NCBI GenBank assembly: GCA_002772195.1
Contig: PCSG01000397.1
Coordinates: forward strand, 1-35,320
Length of the DNA stretch: 35,320 nt
Source: Desulfobacterales bacterium CG23_combo_of_CG06-09_8_20_14_all_51_8
Lineage (GTDB): Bacteria > Desulfobacterota > Desulfobacteria > Desulfobacterales > Desulfosalsimonadaceae
Direction: 5' to 3'
Of the stretch, positions 716-23,894 are shown one piece after another. The notes beneath the pieces were generated by a model. The model saw only the letters and a program-made list of their open reading frames with translations, ran no database searches and was not told the DNA's origin. Every line of letters starts with the position of its first letter. The stretch's first letter is position 1. The position numbers and the translations under genes were made by a program.

Positions 716-1020
716 ATACCCCGCGAGAGCTTTTCTTCAAACCTGACTCTCTTTTGCAACCCTGTTTCGATAGGAACTTGTTATCCGATTCGAAAAACCC
801 CAAAAATGTTTCTCATGGAGACTTATGCCGATCCGCATAAGACGCTGTGATAAACCGATGTGTAAAGCGAAAAATCTGAAATTATAGTATGTTATTGTGT
901 TAAAGGGCATGTATTCAATAGCGTATTATGCGGACAGAGAATCAAAATTCGTTCGGTGACATCTCCGGCGAATATAGAATATAGTTTTGTTCAGAAAAAT
1001 GTTTTCAAGAGGGGGCAATA

Positions 1021-1290
1021 ATGGGTATCTTAACTGGATTGTTAGAAATAATTGGAGGCTCTGTCAAGGCAGATACCATAGATAGAGTAACAAGTGCAGG
1101 ATACTATGATGGAGAACATGGCAATCCACCGCAATGGGGGATCTTCGTAAAGGCGTCGTTGATTAGCGAGGAAAAAGCTGAAATGCTCAAACAATACTAT
1201 ACAGAAGCTTATAAACTTGGGCAGCAAAAAGCAGTTAGAAAAGAAATGGGGGGGAAAGCTTCTGTATTGTTGCCTCCAGATTCTCTATAG
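1021..1290 (+). CDS. Hypothetical 89-aa protein (no recognisable domain); first ORF of the AT-rich islet
   Basis: ATG is preceded by a strong SD-like 'GAGGGGG' (1010-1016). Composition is non-repetitive. It lies in the low-GC islet, upstream of attC-like site A. Confidence 0.5.
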   Translation: MGILTGLLEIIGGSVKADTIDRVTSAGYYDGEHGNPPQWGIFVKASLISEEKAEMLKQYYTEAYKLGQQKAVRKEMGGKASVLLPPDSL

Positions 1291-1372
1291 CATAGCTAAA
1301 AGAAAAAAAATATTTTTTGGGCCAGTACATTGAAAATGTATACAATAATTCTTTCGAAGGATTTGCACCCAA

Positions 1373-1427
1373 AAATAACCGCGTGGAGTCGGACTCGCTA
1401 CGTCGGCGCTCACGCGCAGCGTTATAC
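1373..1427 (+). repeat. attC-like imperfect hairpin A (AAATAAC ... GTTATAC)
   Basis: GC-rich 55-nt element within AT-rich sequence. AAC (1377-1379) and GTT (1421-1423) sit at the ends. Stem CGCGTG (1380-1385)/CACGCG (1411-1416), AG/CT, GAC (1392-1394)/GTC (1402-1404), with bulged bases (G1386, T1389). It ends 29 nt before the TTG start of the ATPase-TIR gene. Confidence 0.4.
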
Positions 1428-1456
1428 CTTTTAAAACACTATCTGGAGGAAATGAT

Positions 1457-2986
1457 TTGTCGAATTACACTCTTGAACAAGTATTTAACGAAGCTGCATT
1501 TCCAGAGGTGACTTTTGTTGAACCGACGAATTACAACTTCATCAAAGCATCCTTTAAGACACCAGGAAAGCACTTAACTATTTCAGGACCATCAGGAACT
1601 GGGAAAACAACACTTGTAAAACACCTTCTTAGAGAACTCAATGTGCTGGAGAAAGATGTTCTCTGGATAAACGGCAGACAATATTCAAATTTCGATTCTG
1701 GAATCATGCTTCTCGCTCAGGAGTTAACTGCCTCTCCGAACTTCGATGAGCTAACGGCACTAATTCAGTTGGTTAAATTCGTAGTGATCGACGACTTCCA
1801 TTTCATTAAGAAAGGTGCGCGTCTCGAAATCTCAAAAAATCTTAAGCTTTGGCATGAAAAAGGAGTTCGTTTCATAATCATAGGAATTGCGACATCAGCA
1901 GAGGAATTATACGGGGTCGATCCAGAACTTGGAATTCGAAACGATCCATTTGAACTAAAAACACAGGACGATGCATTTTGCCGAAAACTTCTTACAAATG
2001 GCTGCAATGCCCTTAATTTCAATTTTTCTAGTTCTTTGACTGAGGAAATTGTCTCAGCATCAAACGGAGTTCCGTCAATTGTTCATGTGATCGCTCGTGT
2101 TTGTTGTATTTCTGTTGGAATTGAGCGGACTCTCGAAGAACCGATGGAGATCGATCGAAGGCTTCGAGACTTGAAGGAAGAAATACTGCGGATTTTTCAT
2201 GGAAAGTACCGCGACAAGATAGTTGGGTTGGCAAAAGGTAAACAGCAAGCACGTTCAGTTCACAACACCTATTTTGACATCGTTGCCCAAATAGCGAGCT
2301 CAGCCTCATCGGAGCTGCCAACCGAAAAGCTGTATCGATCCATTGTCGGTATTATCGAGGATTCGAAGGAACGATCGAGAAAAGCTACTTCTTTCTACAA
2401 TTGCCTTAACAACCTTAGCGATGTCATAGAACAAAAAGGGCTAAGCGACATATTGCTTTTCCGGTCGGGCAGTACCTATATCTCAATAGAAGATCCAACA
2501 TTTAGATTCTATTTGAATTTATTGGATATAGAAGACATAAAGACAAGAATTCATCTACGAACGTCTGCATACCCTTATGATGTTGCAGTCTCTTTTGCAG
2601 GTAATGATCGCCCAACGGTAAAAAGCTTTGTTGACGCTTTAAAGGATCTTGGATTAAATGTTTTCTATGATTTCGACCAACAAGCATTGCTCTGGGGTAA
2701 AGACATACGCGCAAAATTAGCTGAAGTTTATGCAAACGAAGCACAATACATGGTTATTTTCCTTTCCGAATCTTATCCTGAGCGGGATTGGACCGATTTC
2801 GAGCTATCTATCGGAAAAGAGGCTGCGGAAAAAAGAACAGAAGAATACCTCCTTCCGCTACGCTTAGACGATGTTAAGGTTGTTGGGATGAAGTCGACGA
2901 CGGGCTATATAGACCTTAGACAAACTTCCGTCCAGGAAGTGGCTGCAATTCTTGCTGATAAAATTAATGTCAGTGGAAAAGTATAA
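1457..2986 (+). CDS. P-loop (AAA+/ORC-like) ATPase fused to a C-terminal TIR domain; candidate defence/abortive-infection protein
   Basis: TTG start with GGAGG 8 nt upstream (1444-1448). Walker A GPSGTGKTT (1586-1612). Walker B-like FVVIDD (1778-1795). C-terminal 'YDVAVSFAGNDR..VFYDFD..MVIFLSESYPERDWTDFELSIG' fits the TIR pattern. The stop TAA is embedded in the attC-B R'' box. Confidence 0.85.
   Translation: MSNYTLEQVFNEAAFPEVTFVEPTNYNFIKASFKTPGKHLTISGPSGTGKTTLVKHLLRELNVLEKDVLWINGRQYSNFDSGIMLLAQELTASPNFDELTALIQLVKFVVIDDFHFIKKGARLEISKNLKLWHEKGVRFIIIGIATSAEELYGVDPELGIRNDPFELKTQDDAFCRKLLTNGCNALNFNFSSSLTEEIVSASNGVPSIVHVIARVCCISVGIERTLEEPMEIDRRLRDLKEEILRIFHGKYRDKIVGLAKGKQQARSVHNTYFDIVAQIASSASSELPTEKLYRSIVGIIEDSKERSRKATSFYNCLNNLSDVIEQKGLSDILLFRSGSTYISIEDPTFRFYLNLLDIEDIKTRIHLRTSAYPYDVAVSFAGNDRPTVKSFVDALKDLGLNVFYDFDQQALLWGKDIRAKLAEVYANEAQYMVIFLSESYPERDWTDFELSIGKEAAEKRTEEYLLPLRLDDVKVVGMKSTTGYIDLRQTSVQEVAAILADKINVSGKV
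2576..2983 (+). other. TIR domain region of the ATPase-TIR protein (residues ~374-509)
   Basis: A betaA-like 'YDVAVSF' and 'S..Y..R.W...EL' resemble the canonical 'YDVFISF ... S..Y..S.WC..EL'. Glu449 (nt 2801-2803) sits where the catalytic Glu of NADase TIRs lies. Confidence 0.7.
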
Positions 2987-3040
2987 CAATTTGCTGCACG
3001 GGAGCGCAAAAAGCCGCGCCCCGTGAGCAACCCGTTGGGC
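2981..3040 (+). repeat. attC-like imperfect hairpin B (GTATAAC ... GTTGGGC)
   Basis: R''-like GTATAAC (2981-2987) and R'-like GTTGGGC (3034-3040, fits GTTRRRY). Short unpaired spacers AAT/CCC. Long stem TTGCT(G)CACGGG(A)GCGC / GCGCCCCGTGAGCAA with two extrahelical bases (G2996, A3003). Loop AAAAAGCC (3008-3015). Confidence 0.6.
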
Positions 3041-3054
3041 GTCGAAAAGACGGT

Positions 3055-3073
3055 CGAATGTATCAGTCATTCG
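3055..3073 (-). terminator. Possible weak terminator hairpin after higA
   Basis: CGAATG (3055-3060)/CATTCG (3068-3073) with a 7-nt loop, lying 9 nt past the higA-like stop on the minus strand. A TTTT run follows only after 6 nt, so this is not a textbook intrinsic terminator. Confidence 0.25.
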
Positions 3074-3081
3074 TTCAAATT

Positions 3082-3357
3082 TTACGACAGAGAAACATGT
3101 ATTTTTCGTCCCACGGCTTTGGCAAACTTTTCGAGTGTTGAAAGACGGATATCAGTGGCATGATTTTCCATACGAGAAACAACGGATTTTGTCGTTTTTA
3201 AACTTTTTGCAATTTGTTCCTGGGTCAGACCGGTTTCAAGACGAGCTTGCTTTAGCATGAGTCCAAGTTTAAAAGTCTCAAGGCGTTCGTCATAGCCGGA
3301 CCAGAATTTGGGATCTTGTTTCGCCCGCTTTTTTTTATATTTTTGGAAATCGCTCAT
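3082..3357 (-). CDS. higA: XRE-family helix-turn-helix antitoxin (HigA-like)
   Basis: 91 aa. 'LKQARLETGLTQEQIAKSLKTTKSVVSRMEN' is a classic Cro/C1-type HTH. It overlaps the upstream toxin gene by 4 nt, in toxin-first HigBA order. Confidence 0.82.
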   Translation of the reverse strand: MSDFQKYKKKRAKQDPKFWSGYDERLETFKLGLMLKQARLETGLTQEQIAKSLKTTKSVVSRMENHATDIRLSTLEKFAKAVGRKIHVSLS

Positions 3358-3707
3358 TTTTTAGCCTTTCGGTTATAATAATCTTTTTTGCGTTTTTCAG
3401 CAGTGGCAATTTCTTTTTGAGGTATTTGTTGAGATTTTTTGGTGAAACCATGATTCAAAATCACAAGATCTTTCCCATCCCAAAAACCCAATATTCGAAA
3501 TATGTTATTGCCTTGCTGTATCCTTACTTCCCAGATATCATCAGTGCCTTGAAGTTTCTTGAAGAATTTTCGAGGTACAATATCGAGTTGTTCTATGATA
3601 TCAAGCACAAATGCGACTTTCTCAAATTGTTTGTTTGACAGCGAATCGAAATATTCTTCAACAGGGCTTTTGCCTGTTTCGAATTTATAAAATTTGATTT
3701 TTCGCAT
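3354..3707 (-). CDS. higB: RelE/HigB-superfamily toxin (phage Gp49-like/DUF891 type)
   Basis: 117 aa. 'FYKFETGKSPVEEYFDSL...WEVRIQQGNNIFRILGFWDGKDLVILNHGFTKKSQQIPQKEI' matches the Gp49/HigB-type toxin pattern. It is translationally coupled to the HTH antitoxin. Confidence 0.82.
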   Translation of the reverse strand: MRKIKFYKFETGKSPVEEYFDSLSNKQFEKVAFVLDIIEQLDIVPRKFFKKLQGTDDIWEVRIQQGNNIFRILGFWDGKDLVILNHGFTKKSQQIPQKEIATAEKRKKDYYNRKAKK

Positions 3708-3734
3708 ATTTGTATGTTCGCATATGTGCGAACA
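3701..3734. promoter_or_regulatory. Candidate higBA operator: TTCGCATAT direct repeat plus an 8-bp inverted repeat
   Basis: TTCGCATAT occurs at 3701-3709 and 3717-3725. A perfect inverted repeat TGTTCGCA (3715-3722)/TGCGAACA (3727-3734) abuts the higB start codon (3705-3707), where TA autoregulation sites usually lie. Confidence 0.45.
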
Positions 3735-3761
3735 TTTTTCAAGGGTTTATTCTGAAAAACC

Positions 3762-3819
3762 GCACAACCAGGCACTGGTGCCGACCCAAAAAGCCGGGCG
3801 CTACAGTTCACCGTTCAAA
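3762..3819 (+). repeat. attC-like imperfect hairpin C (GCACAAC ... GTTCAAA)
   Basis: AAC (3766-3768) and GTT (3813-3815). 5-nt unpaired spacers CAGGC/TCACC. Stem ACTG/CAGT then GC(C)G(A)CCC/GGGCGC. The loop AAAAAGCC (3788-3795) is identical to the loop of site B. Confidence 0.42.
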
Positions 3820-3938
3820 AACCTTACAGAGAAAGATTATACAATCGTAATAATGATATCCGGAATTCAAACCTCTCAACTCCTGACACCCGAAACCTGA
3901 CACCTTCAACCCAATTTAAAATACTCATCCAGCCTGCC

Positions 3939-5945
3939 ATGCCCCTCTTCAAAATCATCTCCGACATGACCCCCAAGGGCGACCAACCCACGGCCATTGA
4001 GGCCATCAGCCAGGGCATTCGGGAAGGCAAACCTCACCAGGTCATGCTGGGGGTGACCGGTTCCGGCAAAACCTTTACCATGGCCCATATCATTGAGAAG
4101 GTGCAAAAACCCACCCTGATTCTGGCCCCGAACAAAACCCTGGCGGCCCAGCTTTACAATGAGTTTAAGGGCCTGTTCCCGGAAAATGCGGTGGAATATT
4201 TTGTCTCCTATTATGATTATTACCAGCCGGAAGCCTATCTTCCGGTTTCGGATACTTATATTCAGAAGGATTCGTCCATCAATGAAATAATCGACAAAAT
4301 GCGGCATTCCGCCACCCGGTCGGTGTTGTCCCGGCCTGATAGCCTGGTGGTGGCCAGCGTGTCCTGCATTTACGGCCTGGGCGCGCCTGAAGATTACGTC
4401 GCCATGCGCATCGAGCTGGAAAAGGACGCGGAGTTTTCAAGGGAGGAGTTACTCTCTCGGCTTGTGGAAATCCAGTATGAACGCAATGACATGGATTTTC
4501 ACCGTGGGGCCTTCCGGGTCCGGGGAGACCGGGTGGAAATTTTTCCCGCCTATGAGGAAGACACGGCCGTGCGTGTGGAATTTTTCGGGGACGCCATTGA
4601 CGGCCTGTTTGAGATCGATCCCCTGACCGGCAATCGAAAGAAGACCCTGAACCGGGTGCTGATTTATCCGGCCAGCCATTATGTGACGCATCAGCGCACC
4701 CGGGACCGCATCATCGCGGATGTGAACGCGGAACTAAAAGACCGCGTTGATTATTTTGTTCAAAACCGAAAACTCATCGAAGCCCAGCGCATTGAGGAAA
4801 GAACCGGTTTTGATCTGGAAATGATTCAGGAAATCGGGTACTGTAACGGCATTGAAAATTACGCCCGGCACATTACCGGCCGTGCCCCGGGCGAACCGCC
4901 GCCGACCCTGCTTGATTATTTTCCGGAAGATTTTCTGGTGTTTATTGATGAAAGCCACATTGCCGTGCCCCAGATCGGTGGCATGTACAAAGGGGACCGG
5001 TCCCGCAAGGAAACTCTGGTGGAATTCGGGTTCCGCCTGCCGTCGGCCTTGGACAACCGGCCCCTGCGCTTTGATGAATTCAGCGCAAAGGTGCCCCAGG
5101 TGGTTTATGTTTCCGCGACTCCGGCGGATTATGAACTGGAAAGAAGCAAGAGCGCGGTGCATGAACTCATCGTTCGGCCCACGGGACTCATCGATCCGCT
5201 GATCGAATTCCGGGACGCCAAGCGGCAGGTGGATGATCTGTATGATGAAATTCAGCTTCGCATCCAGAAAAAGGAACGGGTTCTGGTCACCACCCTGACC
5301 AAGCGCATGGCCGAAGATTTGACGGATTATTACACGGACCTGGGGATTGCGGTCAAATACCTGCATTCGGATATAAAGACCCTGGAGCGCCTTGAAATTA
5401 TACAAGAACTGCGCACCGGTGCGTTTGATGTGCTGATCGGCATCAACCTCCTGCGGGAAGGGCTGGACATTCCGGAAGTGTCCCTGGTGGCGATTCTGGA
5501 CGCGGATAAGGAAGGGTTTCTTCGCTCGGCCCGCTCCCTGATTCAGACCTGCGGCCGGGCCGCGCGGAATTTGAACGGCAAGGTGCTGATGTATGGCGAA
5601 ACCATAACGAAGTCCATGCAGAACGCTTATGATGAAACCATGCGCCGGCGGAAAATTCAGACCCAGTACAACCAGGATCATGGAATAACACCCGCGACAA
5701 TCATCAAAGAAATCTCCGGAGCGCTTTTGTCGCGGTTTTATCCCGCATCCGATGGACAGGCCGCCATGGAAGTGAACGAATCCATCGCTACCTATGCGTC
5801 CTATGAGAACATAGAGAAGCAGATTGCTTCTCTGGAGAAACAAATGAATGCCGCAGCCAAGGAGCTGGCGTTTGAACGAGCAGCGGAAATCCGGGACCGG
5901 ATCATTGCGTTAAAAAAATTGCAGGTTCTGGACTTTGAAACGTAG
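3939..5945 (+). CDS. uvrB: Excinuclease ABC subunit B
   Basis: 668 aa. '[12 protein letters not shown]', Walker A '[10 protein letters not shown]', helicase motifs, '[10 protein letters not shown]', and a C-terminal UVR motif '[11 protein letters not shown]'. Confidence 0.97.
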
Positions 5946-5952
5946 GCGAGCT

Positions 5953-7776
5953 ATGGAAAACACTCTTGCCCTTCAACTGCCATCCATTTCATCCGGTCCC
6001 GGCGTTTATCTAATGAAGGATGACCGGGGCAAAATAATCTATGTGGGCAAGGCGGCCAATTTAAAAAAACGTCTGGCATCCTATTTTATCAAGCAGACCC
6101 ACCCGGATTTAAAAACCGGTGTATTGGTAAAGCAAATCACCTCCTTTGATACCATTGTCACCCCGTCGGAAAACGAAGCGTTAATTCTCGAATCCACCCT
6201 CATTAAAAAGCACAAGCCGCGATACAATATTCTTTTAAAGGACGACAAGCGGTATCCGTCCATCCGCATTGACCTGACCAGCGACTATCCCTGCCTGCAG
6301 GTCGTCCGGAAAACCGGAAATGACCGTGCCCTGTATTTCGGCCCTTATACCTCGCCGGGCTCGGTCCGGGACACCATCAAAATCATCAATAAAACCTTTA
6401 AACTGCGCAAATGCCAGTCCGACCGGGTCAAGCCCCGGTCCCGGCCATGCCTGAATTATCAGATGGGACTTTGTCTTGCGCCCTGCTGTTATCCGGTGGA
6501 CCAACAGGCATATCGGGAAATGGTGGACGAGGTCCGGATGTTTTTAAACGGCCGGACCCATGACCTGATCCGGAAATTCACCGCTGAAATGACGGTGGCG
6601 GCCGAACGGCAAGCGTTTGAACAAGCGGCAAGGCTGCGGGATAAAATTTTCGCCCTTCAAAACACCGTGGAAAAACAGATTGCAGTCACCCCGGATTTCG
6701 TCGACCGGGATGTCATCGCTTTTGTCCGAAATGACATGATGGCCGTTGTGGTGGTGCTCCTGGTGCGGAACGGATTTTTGCAGGCCGTGCGCCAGTTCGT
6801 TTTCAAGGATGCGATTTCATCGGACCATGAGATTGTGGATGCTTTTATAAAGCAGTATTATGCAAAATCCGATTATATCCCCAAAGAAATCATTGTACCG
6901 CTGCATCTTGAGGATACGCCTGTCTATGCCGGGTGGCTTTCGGACATCAAGGGATCGGCGGTTCATATCATTCTACCGAAGCGCGGGGACAAATTGCGTC
7001 TGTTGACCATGGCCGAAGATAATGCCCGAACCCGGCTCACCCGCATGATGGATGAAATGGCTGCAGGAGCAGAACTGCTTGCGGGTTTGGCGCGGAGGCT
7101 GCAATTAAAGGCTCCGCCTCGGCGCATTGAGTGTTTTGACAATTCCGGCATGTCGGGCAGTAATCTGGTGTCCGCAAGGGTGGTGTTCGTCGATGGCCGG
7201 CCGGAGAAAAAAAGTTATCGGAAGTACACGATCAAAACCGTTGACCTTCAGGATGATTACGCGTCCATGAATGAAGTGCTGGAGCGGCGCTTTAAAAAGA
7301 GCAACCAGGATTCTGATCTTCCGGATCTCTTGATGGTGGATGGGGGCAGGGGGCAGTTGAATATCGCAATATCGGTGATCGAACGGCTGGGCCTGAAGGG
7401 CGCCTTTACCATTATCGGCATTGCCAAAAAAGATGTGGACCGGAATGAGCCAACGGATAAAATCTATTTGCCCGGACGGGTCAATCCCGTGAATTTCGGC
7501 AACGACATGGACGCGCTGTTTTTGCTTCAGCGCATCCGGGATGAGGCCCACCGGTTCGCCATTGCATTCCACCGGCAAAAACGCGGAAAAACCGCCCTGC
7601 ACTCGGCTCTCGACGCCATCCCCGGCATCGGCAAACGGCGCAAAGCGGCTTTGATGAAAAAATTCAAGAGGTTTCAGCGGTTGCGGGAGGCGTCGGTGGA
7701 AGAGCTGGCCGGAACCCCCGGCATCAGTTCGGATTTGGCCCGGACACTTTTTACCGCATTGAACAAAGCCCCATGA
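5953..7776 (+). CDS. uvrC: Excinuclease ABC subunit C
   Basis: GIY-YIG N-terminus 'GVYLMKDDRGKIIYVGKAANLKKR', UVR motif 'FEQAARLRDKI', and a C-terminal endonuclease plus (HhH)2 'IPGIGKRRKAAL'. ATG 5953 is preferred over the TTG at 5935 that overlaps the uvrB stop. Confidence 0.95.
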   Translation: MENTLALQLPSISSGPGVYLMKDDRGKIIYVGKAANLKKRLASYFIKQTHPDLKTGVLVKQITSFDTIVTPSENEALILESTLIKKHKPRYNILLKDDKRYPSIRIDLTSDYPCLQVVRKTGNDRALYFGPYTSPGSVRDTIKIINKTFKLRKCQSDRVKPRSRPCLNYQMGLCLAPCCYPVDQQAYREMVDEVRMFLNGRTHDLIRKFTAEMTVAAERQAFEQAARLRDKIFALQNTVEKQIAVTPDFVDRDVIAFVRNDMMAVVVVLLVRNGFLQAVRQFVFKDAISSDHEIVDAFIKQYYAKSDYIPKEIIVPLHLEDTPVYAGWLSDIKGSAVHIILPKRGDKLRLLTMAEDNARTRLTRMMDEMAAGAELLAGLARRLQLKAPPRRIECFDNSGMSGSNLVSARVVFVDGRPEKKSYRKYTIKTVDLQDDYASMNEVLERRFKKSNQDSDLPDLLMVDGGRGQLNIAISVIERLGLKGAFTIIGIAKKDVDRNEPTDKIYLPGRVNPVNFGNDMDALFLLQRIRDEAHRFAIAFHRQKRGKTALHSALDAIPGIGKRRKAALMKKFKRFQRLREASVEELAGTPGISSDLARTLFTALNKAP

Positions 7777-7911
7777 CGGCTTCAATAGAAATAAAATTTC
7801 AATTTTTTGAGAAATTTATTGTTTTGTTTTTCTCGCAGAGACGCTGGGTCCGCGGAGGGAGATGCCTTTAATGGTCTTATTCTCTGCGCCCCTGCGCGAC
7901 GATCTTTCATG

Positions 7912-8925
<1,014 letters not shown>

Positions 8926-9168
8926 TTATATGTTGATTCATGTCAATATATAAAATAATTTAAATTTAACTGCTTGTTATTTTAACTATAAAATATTTCA
9001 ATCAAATTGTAAGTTTTGCTTACTTTTTTAAAATTGTGCGGAAACCTGGACCATTGCTTCAGATTGCGAGCGAACTGGTGTCCGGATGCCGTCCTCCCAA
9101 GAATATTGGTACCGCGTGATAATTTCTTTGAAAACCGCTTAAAATTCAGGCAGATTTTAACACCTTTC

Positions 9169-9197
9169 TTGACAACAGGGATGATTGTCGGTATCAA
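9169..9197 (+). promoter_or_regulatory. Sigma70-like promoter candidate (TTGACA-17 nt-TATCAA)
   Basis: TTGACA 9169-9174, a 17-nt spacer, and TATCAA 9192-9197, in the 511-bp AT-rich intergenic region upstream of the histidine kinase gene. Motif match only. Confidence 0.3.
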
Positions 9198-9355
9198 AAT
9201 AATGCCTGCTTTGACAACCGCATTTGTTTGGCGGGTCGTTTTTCTCTCATTTTTTTTCAACCAGGATATGACCTTTTTTCGTTAAATTATGCTAATATAT
9301 GGAAAATTTCATTGATGAAATCAACCCCTGCGAACAGATCGGATAACCCCTTCCG

Positions 9356-10234
9356 ATGGATTTTGAATTCATGCCTGATCAGATCAATAAACAGAAAGAT
9401 GCTTTGACGGATGCCTGCTGTCAAGGGGCACTGGAAAAAGAAATCCATAAAACAATCGAATCCGGCCCTCTGACGGGAAGACCAGCCCGATCCGGCAAAA
9501 TGGAAGCTCTGGAAGTGGTCGCCAGTGGCGTTGCCCATGATTTGAACAATATCCTTTCAGGAATTGTCACCTATCCTGAGCTGCTGCTCATGAGAAAAGA
9601 TCTTGATGAGAAAACCCGCAAGGCCCTGAAGGTTATTCGGGACTCAGGCGAGCGGGCCGCCGCGTTGATCGGAGATCTGACCACCATCGCCAGAAACAAT
9701 GCTTCCAATCGGGAAGAGATCAGCATCAACAGTATGGTTCAGGAATATTTACAGTCTCCGGACTACCGCAAGCTGCAACTGTCCCAGGACGGTATCGCTC
9801 TCAAATTAAATCTTGATTCCCGTTTGTTTACTATTGATGCCTCCCGCCTTCATATTCGACGAAGCGTCATGCATCTGGTGGCAAACGCCGCGGAAGCCAT
9901 CGGATCAAACGGACAGATCCTTATTTCAACTGCTAATTGTTTGCTGGGCGTGCCTTTAAGGCCCTATTCGGAAGTAAAAAAAGGTGAATACGCGCTTTTA
10001 ACCGTTGCTCATACCGGCGGTATTTCAGAGCAGCATATCGACCGGATTTTTGAACCCTTCTATACCCGAAAAGTGATGGGTAGAAAAGGCACGGGTCTGG
10101 AATTAACGGTTGTATGGTATACGGCTGCCGACCATAACGGCTATGCCGTTGTGACAGGCGATACGACATCCACCCGGTTTGACCTTTATTTTCCCAGGAC
10201 CCGCCATCTGGCCCGGGAACAGGGGTGCGAATAA
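9356..10234 (+). CDS. Soluble sensor histidine kinase (HisKA + HATPase_c, no obvious sensor domain or adjacent response regulator)
   Basis: H-box 'VASGVAHDLNNILSGI', N-box 'LVANAAEAI', G-box 'GTGLELTVV'. No TM segment. The exact start is uncertain. Confidence 0.85.
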   Translation: MDFEFMPDQINKQKDALTDACCQGALEKEIHKTIESGPLTGRPARSGKMEALEVVASGVAHDLNNILSGIVTYPELLLMRKDLDEKTRKALKVIRDSGERAAALIGDLTTIARNNASNREEISINSMVQEYLQSPDYRKLQLSQDGIALKLNLDSRLFTIDASRLHIRRSVMHLVANAAEAIGSNGQILISTANCLLGVPLRPYSEVKKGEYALLTVAHTGGISEQHIDRIFEPFYTRKVMGRKGTGLELTVVWYTAADHNGYAVVTGDTTSTRFDLYFPRTRHLAREQGCE

Positions 10235-10329
10235 ATTCAGCTTGGTTCTTCAGTTTTTTGTATAAACAACGCTTCAAATATGCTATATTTTATTCGTTAT
10301 GGCATTTTTTTAATCGGGACAGGCATCAG

Positions 10330-10524
10330 ATGGATTTAGGCGTAAAAATAAAAAAATATTACCAGGAAGCGGAACTATACAACGAGCAAGGACTGCTGAC
10401 CGAAGCGCTGGAAAAATACAAGGCGGTGGAAGCCCTGATCAAATCCACCAGCAATATCCGCAACCGTCAAGGATTACTGAAACAGGTCGCCGCAAGAATT
10501 GATGAAGCCGCCAAAAAACTTTAG
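10330..10524 (+). CDS. Small TPR-like/helical hypothetical protein (64 aa from the internal ATG)
   Basis: 'YYQEAELYNEQGLLTEALEKYKAVEALI' resembles a single TPR-like hairpin. The upstream part of the 10225 ORF is Phe/Tyr-rich AT-rich sequence and unlikely to be coding. Confidence 0.4.
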   Translation: MDLGVKIKKYYQEAELYNEQGLLTEALEKYKAVEALIKSTSNIRNRQGLLKQVAARIDEAAKKL

Positions 10525-10536
10525 AAACTGGATGGT

Positions 10537-11247
10537 GTGAAGCCCACGCTGACAGTCAATGAAGAAGCCCAGTCGCTGATGAAGGAAATGTATAGTTTTG
10601 ATGATCCAGAGGCAAAAGGCTCTTCAGCTCTGGGAGGCGCCATTGCTTTGGCGAAATTCGGGCAATATGATAAAGCCATTGAAGAGCTGAACCGATTGCT
10701 CGAATATGACACACTGCGGCTGGAAGCGGCAAAAAACATCCTCTGGTGCTGGATGCAGCAGAATTATGCAGACTATGCCGTTTCTCTTTACCAGAAATGG
10801 CGGAAGAGCAACCTGTTTCCGCCAAAAGAAACGGATGAAATCCATCGATATTTTGTTAAATTGATGGATGAGGCCGGCGTTGACCATGAATTTGATGGAC
10901 TTGAATCTCAGCGGACTATTGAACCGGATTCTGAAATTAATGATGATGATATTCTGGATATCAGTTCCGTCAAGTTTGTTTTGCCGCACGGAGCCAAGGA
11001 AGGGGAAAAAATTGAACTGGAAATCAGTTTTCAGTCCGGCAAATATATTCGCATGATCATTCCCAAAAAGGAAAAGGATTTGATTGACGGCATCCATCCG
11101 GGTGACCTGCTTAAGGATATTGCTTTTTATTCTCCGGTGGCCATTTTTTCCGGTGAGGGATATGTCTCATCCAAAAATGAAATCCATGCGGGTCCCAAAA
11201 GAGGGGATTTCAGCCTGGAAATTAAAATCATTAAAATTGTCTCTTAA
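10537..11247 (+). CDS. Hypothetical protein with a helical (TPR-like) N-terminal half and a beta-rich C-terminal half (possibly a degenerate PilZ-like barrel)
   Basis: 236-aa ORF (GTG start in the ORF track; the start is uncertain). It is co-directional and closely spaced with the mglA-like gene. No canonical motif was recognised. Confidence 0.55.
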   Translation: MKPTLTVNEEAQSLMKEMYSFDDPEAKGSSALGGAIALAKFGQYDKAIEELNRLLEYDTLRLEAAKNILWCWMQQNYADYAVSLYQKWRKSNLFPPKETDEIHRYFVKLMDEAGVDHEFDGLESQRTIEPDSEINDDDILDISSVKFVLPHGAKEGEKIELEISFQSGKYIRMIIPKKEKDLIDGIHPGDLLKDIAFYSPVAIFSGEGYVSSKNEIHAGPKRGDFSLEIKIIKIVS

Positions 11248-11320
11248 GAAAATCAATGAATCAATTTTCAGGCATGGGGAGACAAGGTAAACAGCTAACG
11301 GATTTTTTTGGGAGTTCAAG

Positions 11321-11935
11321 ATGGCGGTCATTAATCTGAAAAATCGACAGATAGAGTGCAAGCTGGTTTATTACGGACCGGGCCGAAGCGGCAAGACAAC
11401 CAATCTGGAATATATCCATAAGGCGTTTAGCAAACGGGTGACCGGTAAAATGATTTCCATTGATACAGAAGGGGACCGGACTCTGTTTTTTGATTTTTTA
11501 CCCCTGGGTCTGGGAAAAATTAAAGGGTGTGATATTAAAGTCCAGCTCTACACCGTTCCGGGTCAGGTGAAATACAAGGCCACCCGCCAGTTGGTTTTAA
11601 AAGGGGTTGACGGCATTGTGTTTGTTGCGGATTCCCTGGCGGTGAGGCGTGAGAAAAACATGCTTTCCCTCAAAGATCTTCATGAAAACCTGCTGAAAAT
11701 GGGGTTGAGTATTCGAAAAATTCCCCTGGTGCTTCAGTATAACAAGCGGGACCTCGAAAAAAAAGGATTGCCCGTGATGCCGGTTGAAAAAATGGAACTG
11801 GAGTTGAACCGGCAGTTGAAGGTTCCGTCATTTCCCGCCAGCGCTTTGTCCGGGGAAGGTGTCGGGAACACATTGACCCAGGCCCTCAAGCTGACCTTGC
11901 AGTCTCTTCAGAATGAATTTAAATGGGCGCAATAG
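11321..11935 (+). CDS. mglA: MglA-family Ras-like small GTPase
   Basis: 'KLVYYGPGRSGKTTNL', 'DRTLFFDFLP', 'LYTVPGQV', 'GVDGIVFVADS' and 'QYNKRDL' line up nearly motif-for-motif with Myxococcus MglA. GGGAG SD 6 nt upstream. Confidence 0.9.
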   Translation: MAVINLKNRQIECKLVYYGPGRSGKTTNLEYIHKAFSKRVTGKMISIDTEGDRTLFFDFLPLGLGKIKGCDIKVQLYTVPGQVKYKATRQLVLKGVDGIVFVADSLAVRREKNMLSLKDLHENLLKMGLSIRKIPLVLQYNKRDLEKKGLPVMPVEKMELELNRQLKVPSFPASALSGEGVGNTLTQALKLTLQSLQNEFKWAQ

Positions 11936-11942
11936 CGGACAG

Positions 11943-13115
11943 ATGAACTCAAATGTCGTATTAAAAGGAAGTCTGGCTTTTTTAAATCTGGGGGAGCTGC
12001 TTCAGCTCTTAGGCATGTCCGGAAGCAGCGGTATCCTGAAACTCACCAGTAATCATACGGAACATTCCGGGTTTATTTATATGATGGATGGCAACCCCGT
12101 GGATGCGGAATTCCAGGGCACCAAAGGTCAGGATGTGCTAAACACCTTTTTCGGCTGGGTGGATGCTGAATTTGAATTCAGTGAGGAAAAAATACTGCAC
12201 CGCCGAACCATTCAGAAGAGCCGGATGGAAATCATCCTGGACGGACTGCGGATGGTGGATGATGGATTAACCCATAAAATCGGACAAGCATCCTCCAAAA
12301 AATCCAGCGTGGACATAAAAGATGCGTCCGGAATCCCCATCATCAAAGGCCCCCTTGTGGATTATCTGTATATTGTGGATGAGGATGATTTTTCCGACGG
12401 CCAGGAAATCGTGGTACAGTCTAAATTCGGCAACTGGCTCTGGGTGATTCTGGAAGGCACGGTAGCGGTGGTGAGACAGATGCCCGGGGGGCCGGTGACC
12501 ATCAATAAATTATCTGAAGGCGCATTTATCGGCGGCATTGGTTCCTTAAAAGAAAAAACAAACATCCGAAACGCCACCGTCTGCGCGGTGGGGAAAGTCC
12601 AGCTGGGGGTTATCGACTTTCATCGGATTATGGAAGAATTTTCCAAAATATCTCAAGATTTAAAGCAGGTCCTGTTCTCTTTGGATAAACGGTTAGCACA
12701 GGTGACAACCGTCTGCGCAAACGTGCATTTTAAAAAAATTAAACTCCATAAGACCATGGAAGACATGCAGGCTTTTTCTTTTTCCGAACACCCGGAAGAT
12801 AAAATTCTGAAAATCGTATCCGGCAGAGCGGTTATCGCAAAACAAATCAATGATCATTTCATTGAATTATGCGAGTTGGCCCCTGAAGATGTCATCGGGA
12901 ATATCCCTTTTTTAGGCACTTCCCACGAACCCCATTCCGCCATGGTGTTTGTTTCAGATCCATTCCAGGTGAGTTCCATCGATCTGATCGATTTGAAAGA
13001 AGAGTATGATGAATTGTCCCAAACATTTAAAAACATGATTGTTCATACATCCACCTCTTTGTCCGTAACAACCGGCAGGCTGATGGATATGATCAAAAAA
13101 CCAGTAACCCAATAA
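11943..13115 (+). CDS. DUF4388 (PATAN-like) domain protein with two degenerate cyclic-nucleotide-binding-like domains
   Basis: 'LKGSLAFLNLGELLQLLGMSGSSGILKL' is the DUF4388 signature. 'WLWVILEGTVAVV...GAFIGG...RNATVCA' is a cNMP-type beta-barrel, and a second weaker copy follows. An alternative ATG at 11913 overlaps the mglA 3' end. Confidence 0.72.
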   Translation: MNSNVVLKGSLAFLNLGELLQLLGMSGSSGILKLTSNHTEHSGFIYMMDGNPVDAEFQGTKGQDVLNTFFGWVDAEFEFSEEKILHRRTIQKSRMEIILDGLRMVDDGLTHKIGQASSKKSSVDIKDASGIPIIKGPLVDYLYIVDEDDFSDGQEIVVQSKFGNWLWVILEGTVAVVRQMPGGPVTINKLSEGAFIGGIGSLKEKTNIRNATVCAVGKVQLGVIDFHRIMEEFSKISQDLKQVLFSLDKRLAQVTTVCANVHFKKIKLHKTMEDMQAFSFSEHPEDKILKIVSGRAVIAKQINDHFIELCELAPEDVIGNIPFLGTSHEPHSAMVFVSDPFQVSSIDLIDLKEEYDELSQTFKNMIVHTSTSLSVTTGRLMDMIKKPVTQ

Positions 13116-13240
13116 GGGCTTGAAGGAAGTTTTCTTTTTCTTTTTTTAAAAAAATGATATTTAATTCTACTTTATAAAGTTCTCGTATTCAATTTTCATT
13201 GAAACAGATAACCTATTTCTTGGTCATAAGGAGCGACGCA

Positions 13241-13591
13241 ATGGGAATCAATAAGCGCAAACACGAGAGATTCGATGCATTAAATCTTTTATCTTACATC
13301 ACCATTGATTCAGACGGGAAGGAATGGGATCAGGGTATGGGCCGGACATTAAATATCAGTGAAAGCGGCCTTCAACTAGAAACCCATGCCCCCGTGGACA
13401 CCAAAAACACGCTGCTGATTTCTATCGGTATTGAGGATGATCTCGTTGAAATCAGAGGCAAAGCAGTCTATACCAATCGTGGTGACAATGATAAATTTGA
13501 ATCCGGCATCGAATTTATTGAAGTCAAGCCGGAGGCTTTATCCGTGTTGAGAAAATTCATCCGTGCATTTCAGAAACAATATGCAAAATAG
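13241..13591 (+). CDS. Stand-alone PilZ domain protein (c-di-GMP receptor type)
   Basis: 'KRKHERF' (RxxxR) and 'LNISESGLQL' (D/NxSxxG) motifs. AAGGAG SD at 13228-13233, 7 nt before the ATG. Confidence 0.8.
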   Translation: MGINKRKHERFDALNLLSYITIDSDGKEWDQGMGRTLNISESGLQLETHAPVDTKNTLLISIGIEDDLVEIRGKAVYTNRGDNDKFESGIEFIEVKPEALSVLRKFIRAFQKQYAK

Positions 13592-13661
13592 GATCTATTG
13601 AACAGTCACCACGCTGCTGGATTTTGCTTCAATCCGGACCCGATGTGATTTAGGATTTTTT

Positions 13662-14546
13662 ATGAAACACCCTGCGATTTTTGAAACTGATTTCCCGAAC
13701 CTCAAATTGATCAAGCGAGGAAAAGTCAGAGATATCTATGATCTGGATGAAGCCCTGTTGATGATCGCCACGGACCGCATTTCCGCTTATGATGTGATCA
13801 TGCCCAATCCGGTGCCGGGCAAAGGGGAGATTTTGACGCGGATTTCCCTGTTCTGGTTCGATGTGATGAAGAATATTGTCGCCAATCATCTGATTTCCGG
13901 GAATGTGGATGACTATCCCAAATCCTGCAAACCCTATGCGGATGCGTTGCGCGGCCGAAGCATGCTGGTGAAAAAAGCATCGCCGTTGCCCGTTGAATGT
14001 GTGGTGCGCGGATATATTTCCGGATCCGGGTGGAAATCCTATCAGGAAACCGGAAGGGTCTGCGGCATCCGCCTGCCGGCGGGCCTGAAAGAATCCGAAC
14101 AGTTGGCCGAACCCATTTTCACGCCATCCACCAAAGAGGAGCAGGGGACCCATGACATTAATATTGATTTTGATGAAACCGTGAAACTTATCGGTGCGTC
14201 CCTGGCTGAAAAGGTCCGGGATCTGAGTCTCGCCATTTACAAAAAAGGAGCCCGGCTGGCTGCTGAAAAAGGCATCCTCATCGCCGATACCAAATTTGAA
14301 TTCGGCCTGCTCGATGACCAGCTCATCCTGATTGATGAAATTCTGACCCCCGATTCCTCCCGGTTCTGGCCAAAGGAAACTTACTGCCCCGGCGGTCCGC
14401 AAAACAGTTTCGACAAACAGTATCTGCGGGATTACCTCATTGCCATCAAATGGGATAAAACCCCGCCCGCTCCATCTTTGCCCGAAGAAGTCATTCAAAA
14501 CACCCGCCAAAAATACATGGAGGCACTGACCTCCCTGACCCGTTAA
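13662..14546 (+). CDS. purC: Phosphoribosylaminoimidazole-succinocarboxamide (SAICAR) synthase
   Basis: 294 aa. '[27 protein letters not shown]' and '[11 protein letters not shown]' are typical long-form PurC. Confidence 0.95.
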
Positions 14547-14555
14547 ATCATTCCT

Positions 14556-15575
14556 ATGAAATCTGTTTCAGATACGCCGGTTTTTGAAACCATCGACCTC
14601 GGACGCATTGATTCAGAAAATCTTTTTTTTAAAATCAGTTTTGAATCATCGCCATCCACGGATTCGGGGGCTATGGCAGTCGATGCCCTCAAGGCATCCA
14701 TCGCGCGCATCGGGCTTGTCTCCCCACCTATTTTAAAATTACAACCGGAAAACCGATATATTGTCGTCAGCGGGTTTAGAAGAATCTCAGTATGCCGGGC
14801 GTTGGGTTTGCAAAAAATACCCGCGCGCGTCATGGGCCTGGGGAGTGATGACGGGCAGTTAATGAAACTCGCCATCGCTGACAATGCCTTTAACCGGTCC
14901 CTGAATATCATCGAACAGGCAACGGCGATATTCAAGTTATCGCCATTTCTCCCTGATGATGACCGCACATGGCATAGCGAATGCGATCCGATCGGTTTAA
15001 CCGTCAATCCCGGGCTGATCCGCAAACTTAAAAAAATCCGTGCCGCGTCCAGCGACCTGAAAGAGAAAATAGCGGCCGGAAAAATTTCCTTGACCGTCGG
15101 CCTTGAACTGGCGGGCATGGACGATGGTTCCCGGGTTCAGTTTTTAACTATTTTTGATGCCTTGAGTCCCACCTTAAATCATCAGAAAGAAATGATCCGC
15201 ATGGCCGGAGAAATCGCCTGTTTAGAGGACAAACCCATATCGAAAATTTTTAATAGCCTGGAAATTGACAATATCATCAAAGATCCGGACATGGACCGAA
15301 ACATGAAAATCAGCCGGGTCCGCCGGAAATTAAAGGACCGGCGCTATCCGGAAATTTCCGGGTTTGAAAAAACCTATCACGCCCGGGTCAAACGCCTTAC
15401 GCTGCCGGAATCCATTGCCCTGCATCCCCCGACGGATTTTGAAGGCAATGACTTCATGATTCAATTCACGTTCCGGGGTCTGCCTCAGTTTAAAGAGATC
15501 TGCGACAATCTTTTGAGGCTCCGGGACCATCCGGATTTTGCCGCTATTTTAGAAAAGAGCCGTGAAGATAACTGA
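14556..15575 (+). CDS. ParB/Srx-fold (ParB N-terminal-like) domain protein
   Basis: 'RYIVVSGFRRISVCRALGLQKIPARV' resembles the ParB-box GxxRxxA region. The remaining ~230 aa are unassigned. It starts 9 nt after purC and overlaps the next gene by 14 nt. Confidence 0.65.
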   Translation: MKSVSDTPVFETIDLGRIDSENLFFKISFESSPSTDSGAMAVDALKASIARIGLVSPPILKLQPENRYIVVSGFRRISVCRALGLQKIPARVMGLGSDDGQLMKLAIADNAFNRSLNIIEQATAIFKLSPFLPDDDRTWHSECDPIGLTVNPGLIRKLKKIRAASSDLKEKIAAGKISLTVGLELAGMDDGSRVQFLTIFDALSPTLNHQKEMIRMAGEIACLEDKPISKIFNSLEIDNIIKDPDMDRNMKISRVRRKLKDRRYPEISGFEKTYHARVKRLTLPESIALHPPTDFEGNDFMIQFTFRGLPQFKEICDNLLRLRDHPDFAAILEKSREDN

Positions 15576-16656
15576 CCTCTATATTGATCAGGATGTTCTG
15601 GATTTACCGGCAACCCGCGTCATTTGCGACCGTCTGAAAATGCCCGGTCAGGTGGTGGATTCCGCCGATCCGGTGTATGAAAAATTATCCCGGACCGCCG
15701 CACCGGTGGATCAGGGCAAAAAGATCCTGTTTCTGACCCGTAACAAAGGGGCGTTTCTTCGCCCGTGCCCTGGAACAGACTATTATACCTGCTGCAATTA
15801 CACGATCCTTCACTTCGGGACATTCTGCACCATGGACTGTTCTTATTGCATTCTTCAATCTTATTTTCATCCGCCGGTGCTCCAGTTTTTTGTGAACCAT
15901 AATGATATGGACGCTTCCCTGGATGAGTTTTTTCAGCAAAAAAAACGCGCCCGTATCGGCACCGGTGAATTCACGGACAGCCTGATCTGGGAAGACATTT
16001 ACCCGTTTACCTCGCATTTGATCAAAAAATTCGCCGCGCAAAACCACGCCATCCTGGAAGTGAAAAGCAAAACCGTCGCTATCGACCATTTGCTGACCCT
16101 GCCCCACAACCAAAAAACCATCATGGCTTGGTCCCTCAATACTTCCGACATCGTCAGAACCGAAGAACGGCGCACGGCGTCCCTGGATGCGCGATTGGCG
16201 GCGGCGGCAAAATGCCGGGACCACGGATATCCCCTGGCGTTTCATTTTGACCCCCTGATTATTTATCCGGGAGCGGAAGCTGCGTACCGACTGATCATAG
16301 AAAAACTTTTTGCAACTATCCGTCCGGAAAATATCGTCTGGATCAGTTTGGGGACTTTCCGCTTCATGCCGGACCTGAAAGCCATTATCGAACAGCGGTT
16401 TGATCGTTCAAAAATTATTTACGGGGAATTTGTCCGGGGATTGGACGGGAAAATGCGCTATTTCAAACCCCTGCGCATCCGGTTTTACCAGCAGATTGTT
16501 TCATTTATCCGGGAATTCGCCCCGCATGTGACCCTCTATTTTTGTATGGAAGACGATGAGGTCTGGGAGAAATCATTTGGGTTCGCGCCGCATCAATATG
16601 GGGGCCTGCCCATGATGCTTGATCAAAGCGCGGCCAGGCACTGCGGGCTTCTTTAA
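15562..16656 (+). CDS. Spore-photoproduct-lyase-family radical SAM protein
   Basis: CX3CX2C cluster 'CTMDCSYC' (15826-15849) in the context 'ILHFGTFCTMDCSYCILQSYF', which closely resembles SplB-family proteins. GVTG-style start: the ORF begins with GTG. Confidence 0.82.
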   Translation: MKITDLYIDQDVLDLPATRVICDRLKMPGQVVDSADPVYEKLSRTAAPVDQGKKILFLTRNKGAFLRPCPGTDYYTCCNYTILHFGTFCTMDCSYCILQSYFHPPVLQFFVNHNDMDASLDEFFQQKKRARIGTGEFTDSLIWEDIYPFTSHLIKKFAAQNHAILEVKSKTVAIDHLLTLPHNQKTIMAWSLNTSDIVRTEERRTASLDARLAAAAKCRDHGYPLAFHFDPLIIYPGAEAAYRLIIEKLFATIRPENIVWISLGTFRFMPDLKAIIEQRFDRSKIIYGEFVRGLDGKMRYFKPLRIRFYQQIVSFIREFAPHVTLYFCMEDDEVWEKSFGFAPHQYGGLPMMLDQSAARHCGLL

Positions 16657-16681: not shown

Positions 16682-17545
16682 TTAACGAACCAATTCCACA
16701 TCCGACTCTGGAACCCAGCAAGTCCTGGCATCCGGCAGTTCCACCCTAAGCCAAGCCCCCCGGTTTTCAAGAAGCACAAATTCGGTTCCTGCATGCAATG
16801 GTTCCTTGAAGCTCTTTTCGTATGACGCGCTGTTGCCTTTTCTAGCGATGACTTCCTGGCTGATAATCACCCCGGGCACTGAATTCCGGAGAGTGATATA
16901 TTCGACGGCTGAAGAACCGGCAAACAGGATGGACAGGGCCGCACTAATGCTGACAATCCATCTGAAAACCGGTCTTTTACTAAAAATACGCAGGGCTGCA
17001 AAAATCCATACCAGGCCGGAGGAAATGGTAAACAGGATGAATCGGATTTTTGCGGATAGATCATAATGCCAGAAGAACACGGTTTTTAAAATTTTTGTTT
17101 CCTGTTTTTCCTCGATCTGGTCCTTTCGGGTGTTTCGTGCAAATTCCAGATTTTTTTGAAGGTTGAGGTCGTTTCCGATATATTGCGCAGCCCGGCGATA
17201 ATTTAAAATCGCTCGGCCGATATCTTTGATTCGAAAATAGATGTTTCCGATATTATAATAGAGTCGTCCGTTTTCAATGCCCCCGTCCTTGATGATCCGC
17301 TCAAGGCGAAGAATAGATTTTTCGTAAAGAGACGTTGCTTGCTGTGGATCGGATAATGCCAGCTTGTTGGCTTCACTAAAAAAACTGTTGGCTTCGTGGA
17401 AAAGCCGGGACAACTCTTCATTGCTGATGGGTTGAGATGATTCTGCCGCTTCAGCACACAAACAAAAATCCGGAAAAAGAAAAAAACGGATTCCCATTAA
17501 GCAAAAAATAAAAAAGAATGTCACTATCCTTTTGAGAGGGCTCAT
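16682..17545 (-). CDS. batE: BatE-like TPR + C-terminal SH3b membrane protein
   Basis: Signal/TM N-terminus, TPR-like repeats 'YYNIGNIYFRIKDIGRAILNYRRA', two TM segments, and an SH3-like tail 'GAWLRVELPDARTCWVPESDVELV'. Last gene of the operon, with a 4-nt overlap with batD. Confidence 0.72.
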   Translation of the reverse strand: MSPLKRIVTFFFIFCLMGIRFFLFPDFCLCAEAAESSQPISNEELSRLFHEANSFFSEANKLALSDPQQATSLYEKSILRLERIIKDGGIENGRLYYNIGNIYFRIKDIGRAILNYRRAAQYIGNDLNLQKNLEFARNTRKDQIEEKQETKILKTVFFWHYDLSAKIRFILFTISSGLVWIFAALRIFSKRPVFRWIVSISAALSILFAGSSAVEYITLRNSVPGVIISQEVIARKGNSASYEKSFKEPLHAGTEFVLLENRGAWLRVELPDARTCWVPESDVELVR

Positions 17546-21723: not shown

Positions 21724-21727
21724 ATCG

Positions 21728-22786: not shown

Positions 22787-22798
22787 AAGAATGAAACG

Positions 22799-23848: not shown

Positions 23849-23894
23849 GGGTTATTCAAGCGGGTACTGATGTTCAAGGTCCTGGGACAATGGT

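Follow-up and report, generated by a model that had tools for sequence, protein, structure and literature searches.

A candidate single-gene abortive-infection protein that joins an ORC/Cdc6-like AAA+ ATPase and winged helix to a C-terminal TIR domain

Fusions between a nucleoside triphosphatase (NTPase) and a TIR domain are already established, as in TIR-NLR and Avs, and so are TIR proteins that cleave nicotinamide adenine dinucleotide (NAD+) without a partner, as in SpbK. In the STAND or NLR-like fusions (Rst_TIR-NLR, PMC9122126; TIR-bearing Avs), a P-loop oligomerization NTPase of the ORC/Cdc6-STAND lineage and a TIR share one polypeptide. TIR-NLR proteins place the TIR at the N-terminus, followed by a STAND NOD and a long C-terminal sensor of the TPR type. 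SpbK, carried by ICEBs1 of Bacillus subtilis, illustrates abortive infection by a single TIR NADase; as described in the available part of its report (PMC12847820), it is a mobile-element-borne protein that acts alone through a C-terminal TIR NADase, lacks an ATPase and is activated directly by the phage protein YonE. Here we analyze a 509-residue ATPase-TIR protein encoded at 1457..2986 on the + strand of a 35,320-nucleotide stretch of Desulfobacterales bacterium CG23_combo_of_CG06-09_8_20_14_all_51_8 (assembly GCA_002772195.1, contig PCSG01000397.1), hereafter the window. We conclude, with moderate confidence, that the gene encodes a self-contained, horizontally mobile abortive-infection defense protein. 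The argument draws on the intact gene, its domain folds and conserved motifs, its movement as a single gene, its defense-type neighborhoods and its modular relatives. The family adds to the established fusions a reversed domain order, an ORC/Cdc6-like rather than STAND-like fold, the lack of a sensor domain, and small size.

The gene is complete and constitutes the whole functional unit. Its open reading frame (ORF) was called from a TTG start, and a Shine-Dalgarno sequence, GGAGG, can be read at 1445..1449 (+), 7 nt before the TTG and within the segment (1420-3020) conserved with L001, a close copy from another genomic setting. In an alignment of homologs, the start residue coincides with the equivalent start of the other proteins. 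An earlier note on this DNA, made from its letters alone, had proposed a P-loop ATPase fused to a TIR domain, and its landmarks (the 509-residue ORF, Walker A at 1586-1612, Walker B at 1778-1795, the segment SNGVPSIVHVIARV, and Glu449 at 2801-2803) are all exactly placed. Each of its claims that is open to computation held, and none of the computational outcomes that it listed as refuting came about.

Profile and model comparisons predict an AbTir-like TIR NADase, which would cleave NAD+, in the C-terminal 135 residues. Residues 376-490 (2582..2926, +) match the Pfam profile TIR_2 (PF13676) with E=2.5e-15 and 57.5 bits against a cut-off of 28. Profile matches of this region in the PDB include BtTir (7uxr, E=3.6e-10), AbTir (7uwg, 8g83), BtpA/TcpB and the plant Roq1 TIR, with the solved BtTir and AbTir structures matched at E ~1e-9 to 1e-10. 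The AlphaFold model of residues 369-509 has a pLDDT of 78.6, and its best Foldseek match is AbTir (7uxu_A, E=6e-7, TM 0.68/0.71), followed by the TIRs of BtpA, PdTIR, MyD88, SPARTA and SARM1. AbTir and BtTir are the closest TIRs in both sequence and fold, and they share an aligned catalytic glutamate: DWTDFEL of the window protein aligns to DWTNYEL of AbTir, which sets Glu449 (2801..2803, +), the predicted catalytic residue, on the glutamate of the AbTir motif WTNYEL. The by-eye TIR assignment of the earlier note is therefore borne out by the TIR_2 profile, the PDB profile matches and the Foldseek match to AbTir, and the glutamate position that it singled out is conserved, being invariant in 34 close homologs and, when the window protein was aligned with 87 C-terminal domains of superfamily representatives, occupied by glutamate in 71 of the 88. 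AbTir, BtTir and ThsB differ from the window protein in being TIR-only or coiled-coil-TIR proteins.

The N-terminal 365 residues, as modeled, are by fold an ORC/Cdc6-like AAA+ base followed by a lid and a winged helix. The full-length AlphaFold model has a pLDDT of 85.5 and a pTM of 0.71. AAA_22 matches residues 38-145 with 33.9 bits against a Pfam cut-off of 27 and is the sole ATPase profile above threshold. The alpha/beta ATPase base begins at residue 26 and extends to about residue 170 (1532..1966, +), as delimited by AAA_22, the modeled secondary structure and Foldseek. Within it, the Walker A motif GPSGTGKTT (residues 44-52, 1586..1612, +) is intact and includes Lys50; the Walker B motif FVVIDD (residues 108-113, 1778-1795) continues into FH (1778..1801 in all, +) and supplies Asp112, Asp113 and His115. 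A two-helix insertion (residues 82-103) separates beta2 from the Walker B strand in the model. Arg161 (1937..1939, +) closes helix 158-161 of the model and is followed by strand 162-166, a position where an AAA+ arginine finger would be expected, and is a candidate for that role. The middle region that the earlier note had compared to an AAA+ lid is modeled as lid helices at 172-186, 192-202 and 206-219 (lid ~172-219, 1970..2113, +), and includes the motif NGVPS (203-207) and SNGVPSIVHVIARV (residues 202-215). The basic loop KGKQQARSVHNT (260-271) and a winged-helix domain (~271-355) with the wing ISIEDPTFRF follow (2234..2521, +), as indicated by conservation, the model and Foldseek; the modeled winged helix runs helix-strand-helix-helix-strand. 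The loop (2234-2269) is among the most conserved stretches of the close family yet is the least confident part of the model, with pLDDT <50 at residues 264-268.

Structural comparison placed the module among ORC-type ATPases, in agreement with the short ORC/AAA+-like ATPase that had been proposed. The best Foldseek matches in the PDB were 7jgr_A (Drosophila ORC-Cdc6 complex), 2v1u_A (archaeal ORC1), 1fnn_A (Cdc6), RFC and TnsC, at E 1e-8 to 1e-7, with 350-430 columns aligned across the AAA+ base, lid and C-terminal helical or winged-helix domain (416-420 columns for ORC1/Cdc6). Differing domain orientations keep the TM scores to ORC, Cdc6, RFC and TnsC at only 0.41-0.52. The window protein departs from these proteins in its TIR fusion, its patchy phyletic pattern and its lack of sequence-profile membership: TIGR02928 (orc1/cdc6) gave 17.5 bits against a cut-off of 181.3, and a profile search of the PDB with the ATPase module returned nothing related beyond the P-loop level. 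STAND proteins were absent from the top 50 Foldseek matches of the module, and the STAND Pfam profiles stayed below threshold (NB-ARC 15.6 vs 23.5; nSTAND_NTPase5 22.1 vs 34; nSTAND3 21.3 vs 27.2). The best folds (ORC/Cdc6/RFC), the invariant Arg161 and these sub-threshold profiles set the protein apart from STAND NTPases, as does its domain order, which reverses that of TIR-NLR and omits the repeats. Repeats and other dedicated sensor domains are absent from both the domain scan and the model, and the TIR is the last domain of the protein. A STAND-type MHD histidine in the winged helix (His269) was considered and dropped: it is invariant among the close homologs, but the wider superfamily does not conserve it.

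Conservation of the motifs was assessed at two depths. A search of 5.8 billion proteins yielded 337 homologs; nearly all of the best 120 are 500-530 residues long with the same AAA_22 plus TIR_2 architecture, and those with names, among the matches listed, are almost always labeled generically (e.g., TIR domain-containing protein). In an alignment of 34 close homologs at 51-90% identity, mean column identity was 63%, and invariant positions comprised G44, S46, G47, G49 and K50 of the P-loop, D112, D113 and H115 of Walker B, as well as R161, P206, S207, W445 and E449. Ranked by entropy, the most conserved regions of the close family were the P-loop, residues 131-170, NGVPS, KGKQQARSVHNT, the recognition helix TSFYNCLNNL and the wing ISIEDPTFRF, with the basic loop and winged helix forming the lowest-entropy blocks of the protein. 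The most variable regions were the helical insertion (61-105), the lid (171-200) and the linker (221-240). Across 100 divergent module sequences from the wider superfamily, G143, R161 and G182 were invariant (100/100), and D113 (98/100), H115 (97/100), K130 (96/100) and G204 (92/100) were nearly so; K50 was retained in 93 of the 94 sequences with a residue at that column.

Comparison with L001 indicated that the gene is real, under selection, and moves on its own. The two copies are 90% identical, and the ratio of nonsynonymous to synonymous substitution rates (dN/dS) between them was 0.065 overall, with values of 0.056 in the ATPase part and 0.093 in the TIR part. DNA similarity between the two loci is confined to window positions 1420-3020, that is, the ORF and about 35 nt on each side. 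When the flanking ORFs of ~32 non-redundant loci were clustered with blastp, the ATPase-TIR gene was the sole family common across loci, with neither a SIR2/SLOG gene nor any other conserved partner. The gene is thus a stand-alone unit, and the proposal that it lacks both a repeat sensor and a SIR2/SLOG partner was upheld in the protein and across these loci. A two-gene system with either the 89-residue ORF upstream or the toxin-antitoxin pair downstream was rejected, since neither is kept beside the homologs and the homology to L001 stops ~35 nt outside the ORF at either end.

The gene is rare and its distribution is patchy. A set of 185,579 genomes, each representing a species, yielded 28 loci, whose hosts belong to Pseudomonadota, Cyanobacteria, Acidobacteriota, Bacteroidota and Planctomycetota and include the archaeon Methanoperedens. 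Cytobacillus carries a further copy, which brings in Bacillota, for at least seven phyla in all. Full-length homologs with 25-27% identity occur on plasmids of Pantoea, Acetobacter, Curtobacterium, Gloeothece and Azospirillum and on a Ralstonia megaplasmid. Such a phyletic pattern is driven by horizontal transfer and is unlike that of a housekeeping gene. No DNA-level match to the window gene or the Pantoea homolog was present in 5,426 E. coli genomes. One homolog, in a Planctomycetota metagenome-assembled genome (MAG; L037:10001-11519), is broken into three ORFs of 159-186 residues and is either a decaying pseudogene or the product of frameshift errors in assembly.

Many of the loci are of defense or mobile type. 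The clearest case is a Pirellulaceae MAG (L030, JAHBXS010000002.1, 5215-15930), where the order is HmaA (5215-8688), a 373-residue gene (8768-9886) without a PADLOC match, the ATPase-TIR gene (10001-11503), HmaB (11518-14877) and a SoFic-like Fic gene (14890-15930). The homolog is embedded within the Hma system, a textbook instance of defense gene embedding, and embedding inside Hma has served as a criterion for nominating defense candidates (Payne et al. 2024, bioRxiv 10.1101/2024.01.29.577857). Elsewhere, the homolog abuts a pPIWI-RE system in Waterburya (L013), lies 19 nt upstream of a PDC-S15 candidate (L031), or is found near a ThsB-TIR gene, a caspase-like gene and four integrases (Cytobacillus). 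Other neighbors include an Mrr-like nuclease, an AbiEii-like protein and ParE/Phd (L002); NERD and a Y1 transposase (L009); GmrSD_C and SLOG-like/PRTase genes (L010); and DUF4145 (L004). A PADLOC scan of 147 neighbors within 3.5 kb also detected a reverse transcriptase (RT), HamB, Cas1, mad6, PD-T4-6 and PDC-M23B. On the Pantoea agglomerans plasmid pNBBC01-2 (L039:8004-15609), a divergent homolog heads a cluster with three further TIR proteins, a CBASS-type patatin phospholipase, a macro-domain protein and a RelE/Phd toxin-antitoxin pair, which may be a composite TIR-signaling island. The Gloeothece plasmid carries one further TIR protein and a CBASS-type phospholipase. Read locus by locus rather than as an enrichment statistic, the settings are small insertions, not exclusively large islands, and are often of defense or mobile type.

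The ATPase module extends well beyond this family. A profile of residues 1-368 matched 2,371 clusters (50% identity) at E<1e-3 and 959 at E<1e-10. Many clusters of the superfamily consist of the module plus a C-terminal TIR in ~485-530 residues, and a second subfamily of ~490 residues has 1,031 matches, with only generic names among the named ones, in hosts such as Pantoea, Serratia, Enterobacter, Sinorhizobium, Paracoccus and Nitrospira. Distant relatives (P0148, P0154, P0173, P0174, P0184, P0201) carry extra N-terminal domains; the multidomain architectures are TIR-module-TIR, REC-module-TIR, HD-CE-module-TIR, PNP_UDP_1-TIR-module-TIR, HsdM-HTH-module-TIR (a methylase) and DUF4062-NACHT-HEAT-module-TIR. 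A remote STAND relationship is plausible given that one of these relatives, P0201, passes the nSTAND_NTPase5 threshold on its module (43.6 bits).

Proteins of ~425-430 residues that comprise the module without a TIR are true members of the PADLOC candidate PDC-S59 (P0242, P0252, P0264), matching positions 3-404 of the 428-position model end to end with 175-291 bits. The window protein is homologous to PDC-S59 through the AAA+-lid-winged-helix module, belongs to the same superfamily, and is likewise a single gene; it differs in its C-terminal TIR and its N-terminal part. Its match to the model covers residues 107-352 and model positions 153-399 of 428 (58%) with 67.5 bits (E=2.7e-19), and TIR-fused proteins in general reach 42-73 bits on part of the model. 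By these scores the TIR-fused proteins are a sister subfamily of PDC-S59 rather than members, and they have no dedicated model.

Comparison with other described systems gave only partial or sub-threshold matches, and membership of PDC-S59, Thoeris, Avs/TIR-NLR, retron-TIR and the NCBIfam families DS41_1 and DS8 was rejected. The Thoeris match, to ThsB1, was weak (28.6 bits). Thoeris requires the effector ThsA, and no ThsA-like gene (SIR2/SLOG, macro or transmembrane) is present in the window or conserved in the ~32 loci. Features of CBASS or Pycsar effectors or of SPARTA (SAVED, STING, cNMP-binding, APAZ with short pAgo) were absent from the protein and not conserved nearby. Like the window protein, SpbK is one polypeptide carried by a mobile element, with its TIR at the C-terminus; no sequence relationship extends beyond that domain. 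A survey of E. coli systems TIR-I to TIR-IX includes one with an AAA domain which, by elimination within the available part of that report (PMC11350192), is a two-protein system; it lies outside our comparison, in which no named or validated system matches the ATPase-TIR protein. A full-text literature search found no paper describing or naming the family. The proposal that the protein matches no named family hence stands as far as named or validated systems are concerned, but must be qualified by the homology of its module to the candidate PDC-S59 and of its TIR to the candidate PADLOC PDC-S66.

Taken as an abortive-infection protein, the ATPase-TIR protein would be monomeric or otherwise inactive in the uninfected cell. 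In response to an infection cue, the AAA+ module would then self-assemble in an ATP-dependent manner. The probable sensor is either the strongly conserved winged helix with the basic loop or the variable helical insertion, and the cue could be a phage protein or some nucleic-acid structure. Assembly would bring the TIR domains into the head-to-tail contacts needed for catalysis, since TIR catalysis requires oligomerization (PMC10899771). The active TIRs would cleave NAD+, possibly also yielding isomers of cyclic ADP-ribose (cADPR), and NAD+ depletion would halt cell and phage alike. NTPase-driven assembly that activates a TIR is presumably also the logic of the TIR-STAND and NLR-like proteins.

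Several observations weigh against this reading. The trigger is purely our inference, as no dedicated sensor domain is visible. The domain-to-domain geometry of the full-length model is only moderately confident, as its pTM indicates. No full-length homolog was detected in 50,697 phage records, and none in IMG/VR viral contigs. PDC-S59, the nearest catalogued relative, is itself a guilt-by-embedding candidate only. The multidomain relatives all keep the C-terminal TIR and differ in their N-terminal domains, which is unusual for an effector, so the TIR could be an assembly or signaling element rather than the killing effector. Finally, the expectation that homologs occupy defense settings held with a qualification: their surroundings are variable or mobile and often rich in defense genes, but several loci have mostly housekeeping flanks, including the window (cysS and uvrB-uvrC), L001 and L004.

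A more specific form of the proposal concerns the cue. The absence of a sensor domain, together with the highly conserved winged helix and basic loop, hints, speculatively, that the ligand is a general one, for instance nucleic acid. The protein would then be a minimal, sensor-less immune receptor whose AAA+-winged-helix module recognizes a foreign nucleic-acid structure (phage replication intermediates or origin-like DNA, for example), polymerizes on it with ATP and thereby turns on the TIR NADase. We regard this version as rather doubtful. If true, it would represent a DNA-templated "proto-NLR" intermediate between replication-initiator AAA+ proteins and STAND/NLR receptors, with a core reused across >2,000 clusters alongside interchangeable N-terminal effectors.

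Instead of killing by its own NAD+ depletion, the TIR might produce a cADPR-type or related nucleotide for an effector encoded elsewhere, as in Thoeris. Its closest solved relatives, AbTir and BtTir, are among the TIRs that produce cADPR isomers (PMC10022894), and the weak ThsB match points the same way. So do the small TIR proteins, CBASS-type patatin phospholipases and macro-domain protein near the Pantoea and Gloeothece plasmid homologs, and the ThsB-TIR and caspase pair adjoining the Cytobacillus gene. This alternative is unlikely, however, given that no partner gene is conserved in the ~32 loci, that the protein contains no SLOG, SAVED, macro or STING domain, and that the gene is transferred alone, for a signal without a co-inherited receptor would be useless.

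The roles of the two halves could also be exchanged, with the ATPase-winged-helix module as the effector, loading on or blocking foreign DNA in the manner of ORC or TnsC, and the TIR serving mainly as an oligomerization scaffold or regulator. Consistent with this, the best folds are those of the DNA-loading AAA+ proteins ORC1, Cdc6, RFC and TnsC, conservation peaks in the winged helix and basic loop, TIR-less relatives of PDC-S59 type (~425 residues) imply that the module can stand alone, and multidomain relatives add other enzymatic domains N-terminally to a constant TIR. Scaffold-only TIRs usually lose the catalytic glutamate. Here it is retained, and with the TIR motifs it is under strong purifying selection (TIR dN/dS 0.09), which makes an exchange of roles quite improbable.

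A function outside phage defense, whether as toxic cargo of a selfish or addiction type on mobile elements or as an NAD+ regulator that responds to stress or DNA damage, strikes us as very unlikely: type II toxin-antitoxin pairs are frequent immediate neighbors (in the window, ParE/Phd at L002, RelE/Phd on the Pantoea plasmid and MazEF on the Acetobacter plasmid), integrases and transposases lie nearby and the window gene sits beside uvrB/uvrC, but no cognate antitoxin or immunity gene is conserved, uvrBC adjacency recurs in no other locus examined, and the neighbors include many bona fide defense genes, with one copy inside Hma.

Within the window, the gene occupies a low-GC islet beside a toxin-antitoxin pair, as had been noted. 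GC content is 0.40-0.42 across ~800-3900, compared with 0.51-0.55 in the downstream uvrB-uvrC. The islet is flanked by a cysS-like gene, present as its 3' end (8-715), and by uvrB (3939-5945), both named from their translations. The pair, on the - strand at 3082-3707, consists of a Gp49/HigB-like toxin (3354-3707; Pfam Gp49, E=4.6e-21) and an XRE-HTH antitoxin (3082-3357; Pfam HTH_3, E=2e-10), whose ORFs overlap by 4 nt with the toxin first; both are neighbors in the islet and lie outside the functional unit. Upstream, an 89-residue ORF (1021..1290, +) is probably also outside the unit and falls outside the stretch conserved with L001. It had no match in Pfam, PADLOC or NCBIfam; its ribosome-binding site is strong, and positions 956-985 resemble a promoter. 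A search of the islet borders for attachment-site repeats, tRNA genes, Rfam RNAs and promoter or terminator signals gave nothing beyond chance.

Other parts of the window contain features apart from the islet. A ParB_N-domain protein (14556-15575, +) overlaps a radical-SAM protein resembling spore photoproduct lyase (15562-16656, +) by 14 nt. A long operon at 16682-26881 (-) with BatD, TPR and VWA proteins is a Bat/MoxR-type aerotolerance cluster, and AT skew on the + strand is strongly negative along it, to -0.37 at 19.5-20.5 kb. A 699-residue ORF at 30028-32127 (-) had no Pfam match at E<=1e-5.

If confirmed, the ATPase-TIR gene would add a compact (1.5 kb), single-gene, NAD+-depleting defense to the catalogue, with an architecture unlike known TIR-NTPase systems in combining an ORC/Cdc6-like AAA+ ATPase, a winged helix and a TIR without a repeat sensor. 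Such a small, self-contained NADase switch would be a handy tool for structural and synthetic-biology work. Confirmation would also help to explain how immune signaling came to recruit ORC-like AAA+ proteins. The module anchors a large and mostly unannotated superfamily, so the mechanism of one member would annotate thousands of entries now listed as TIR domain-containing protein.

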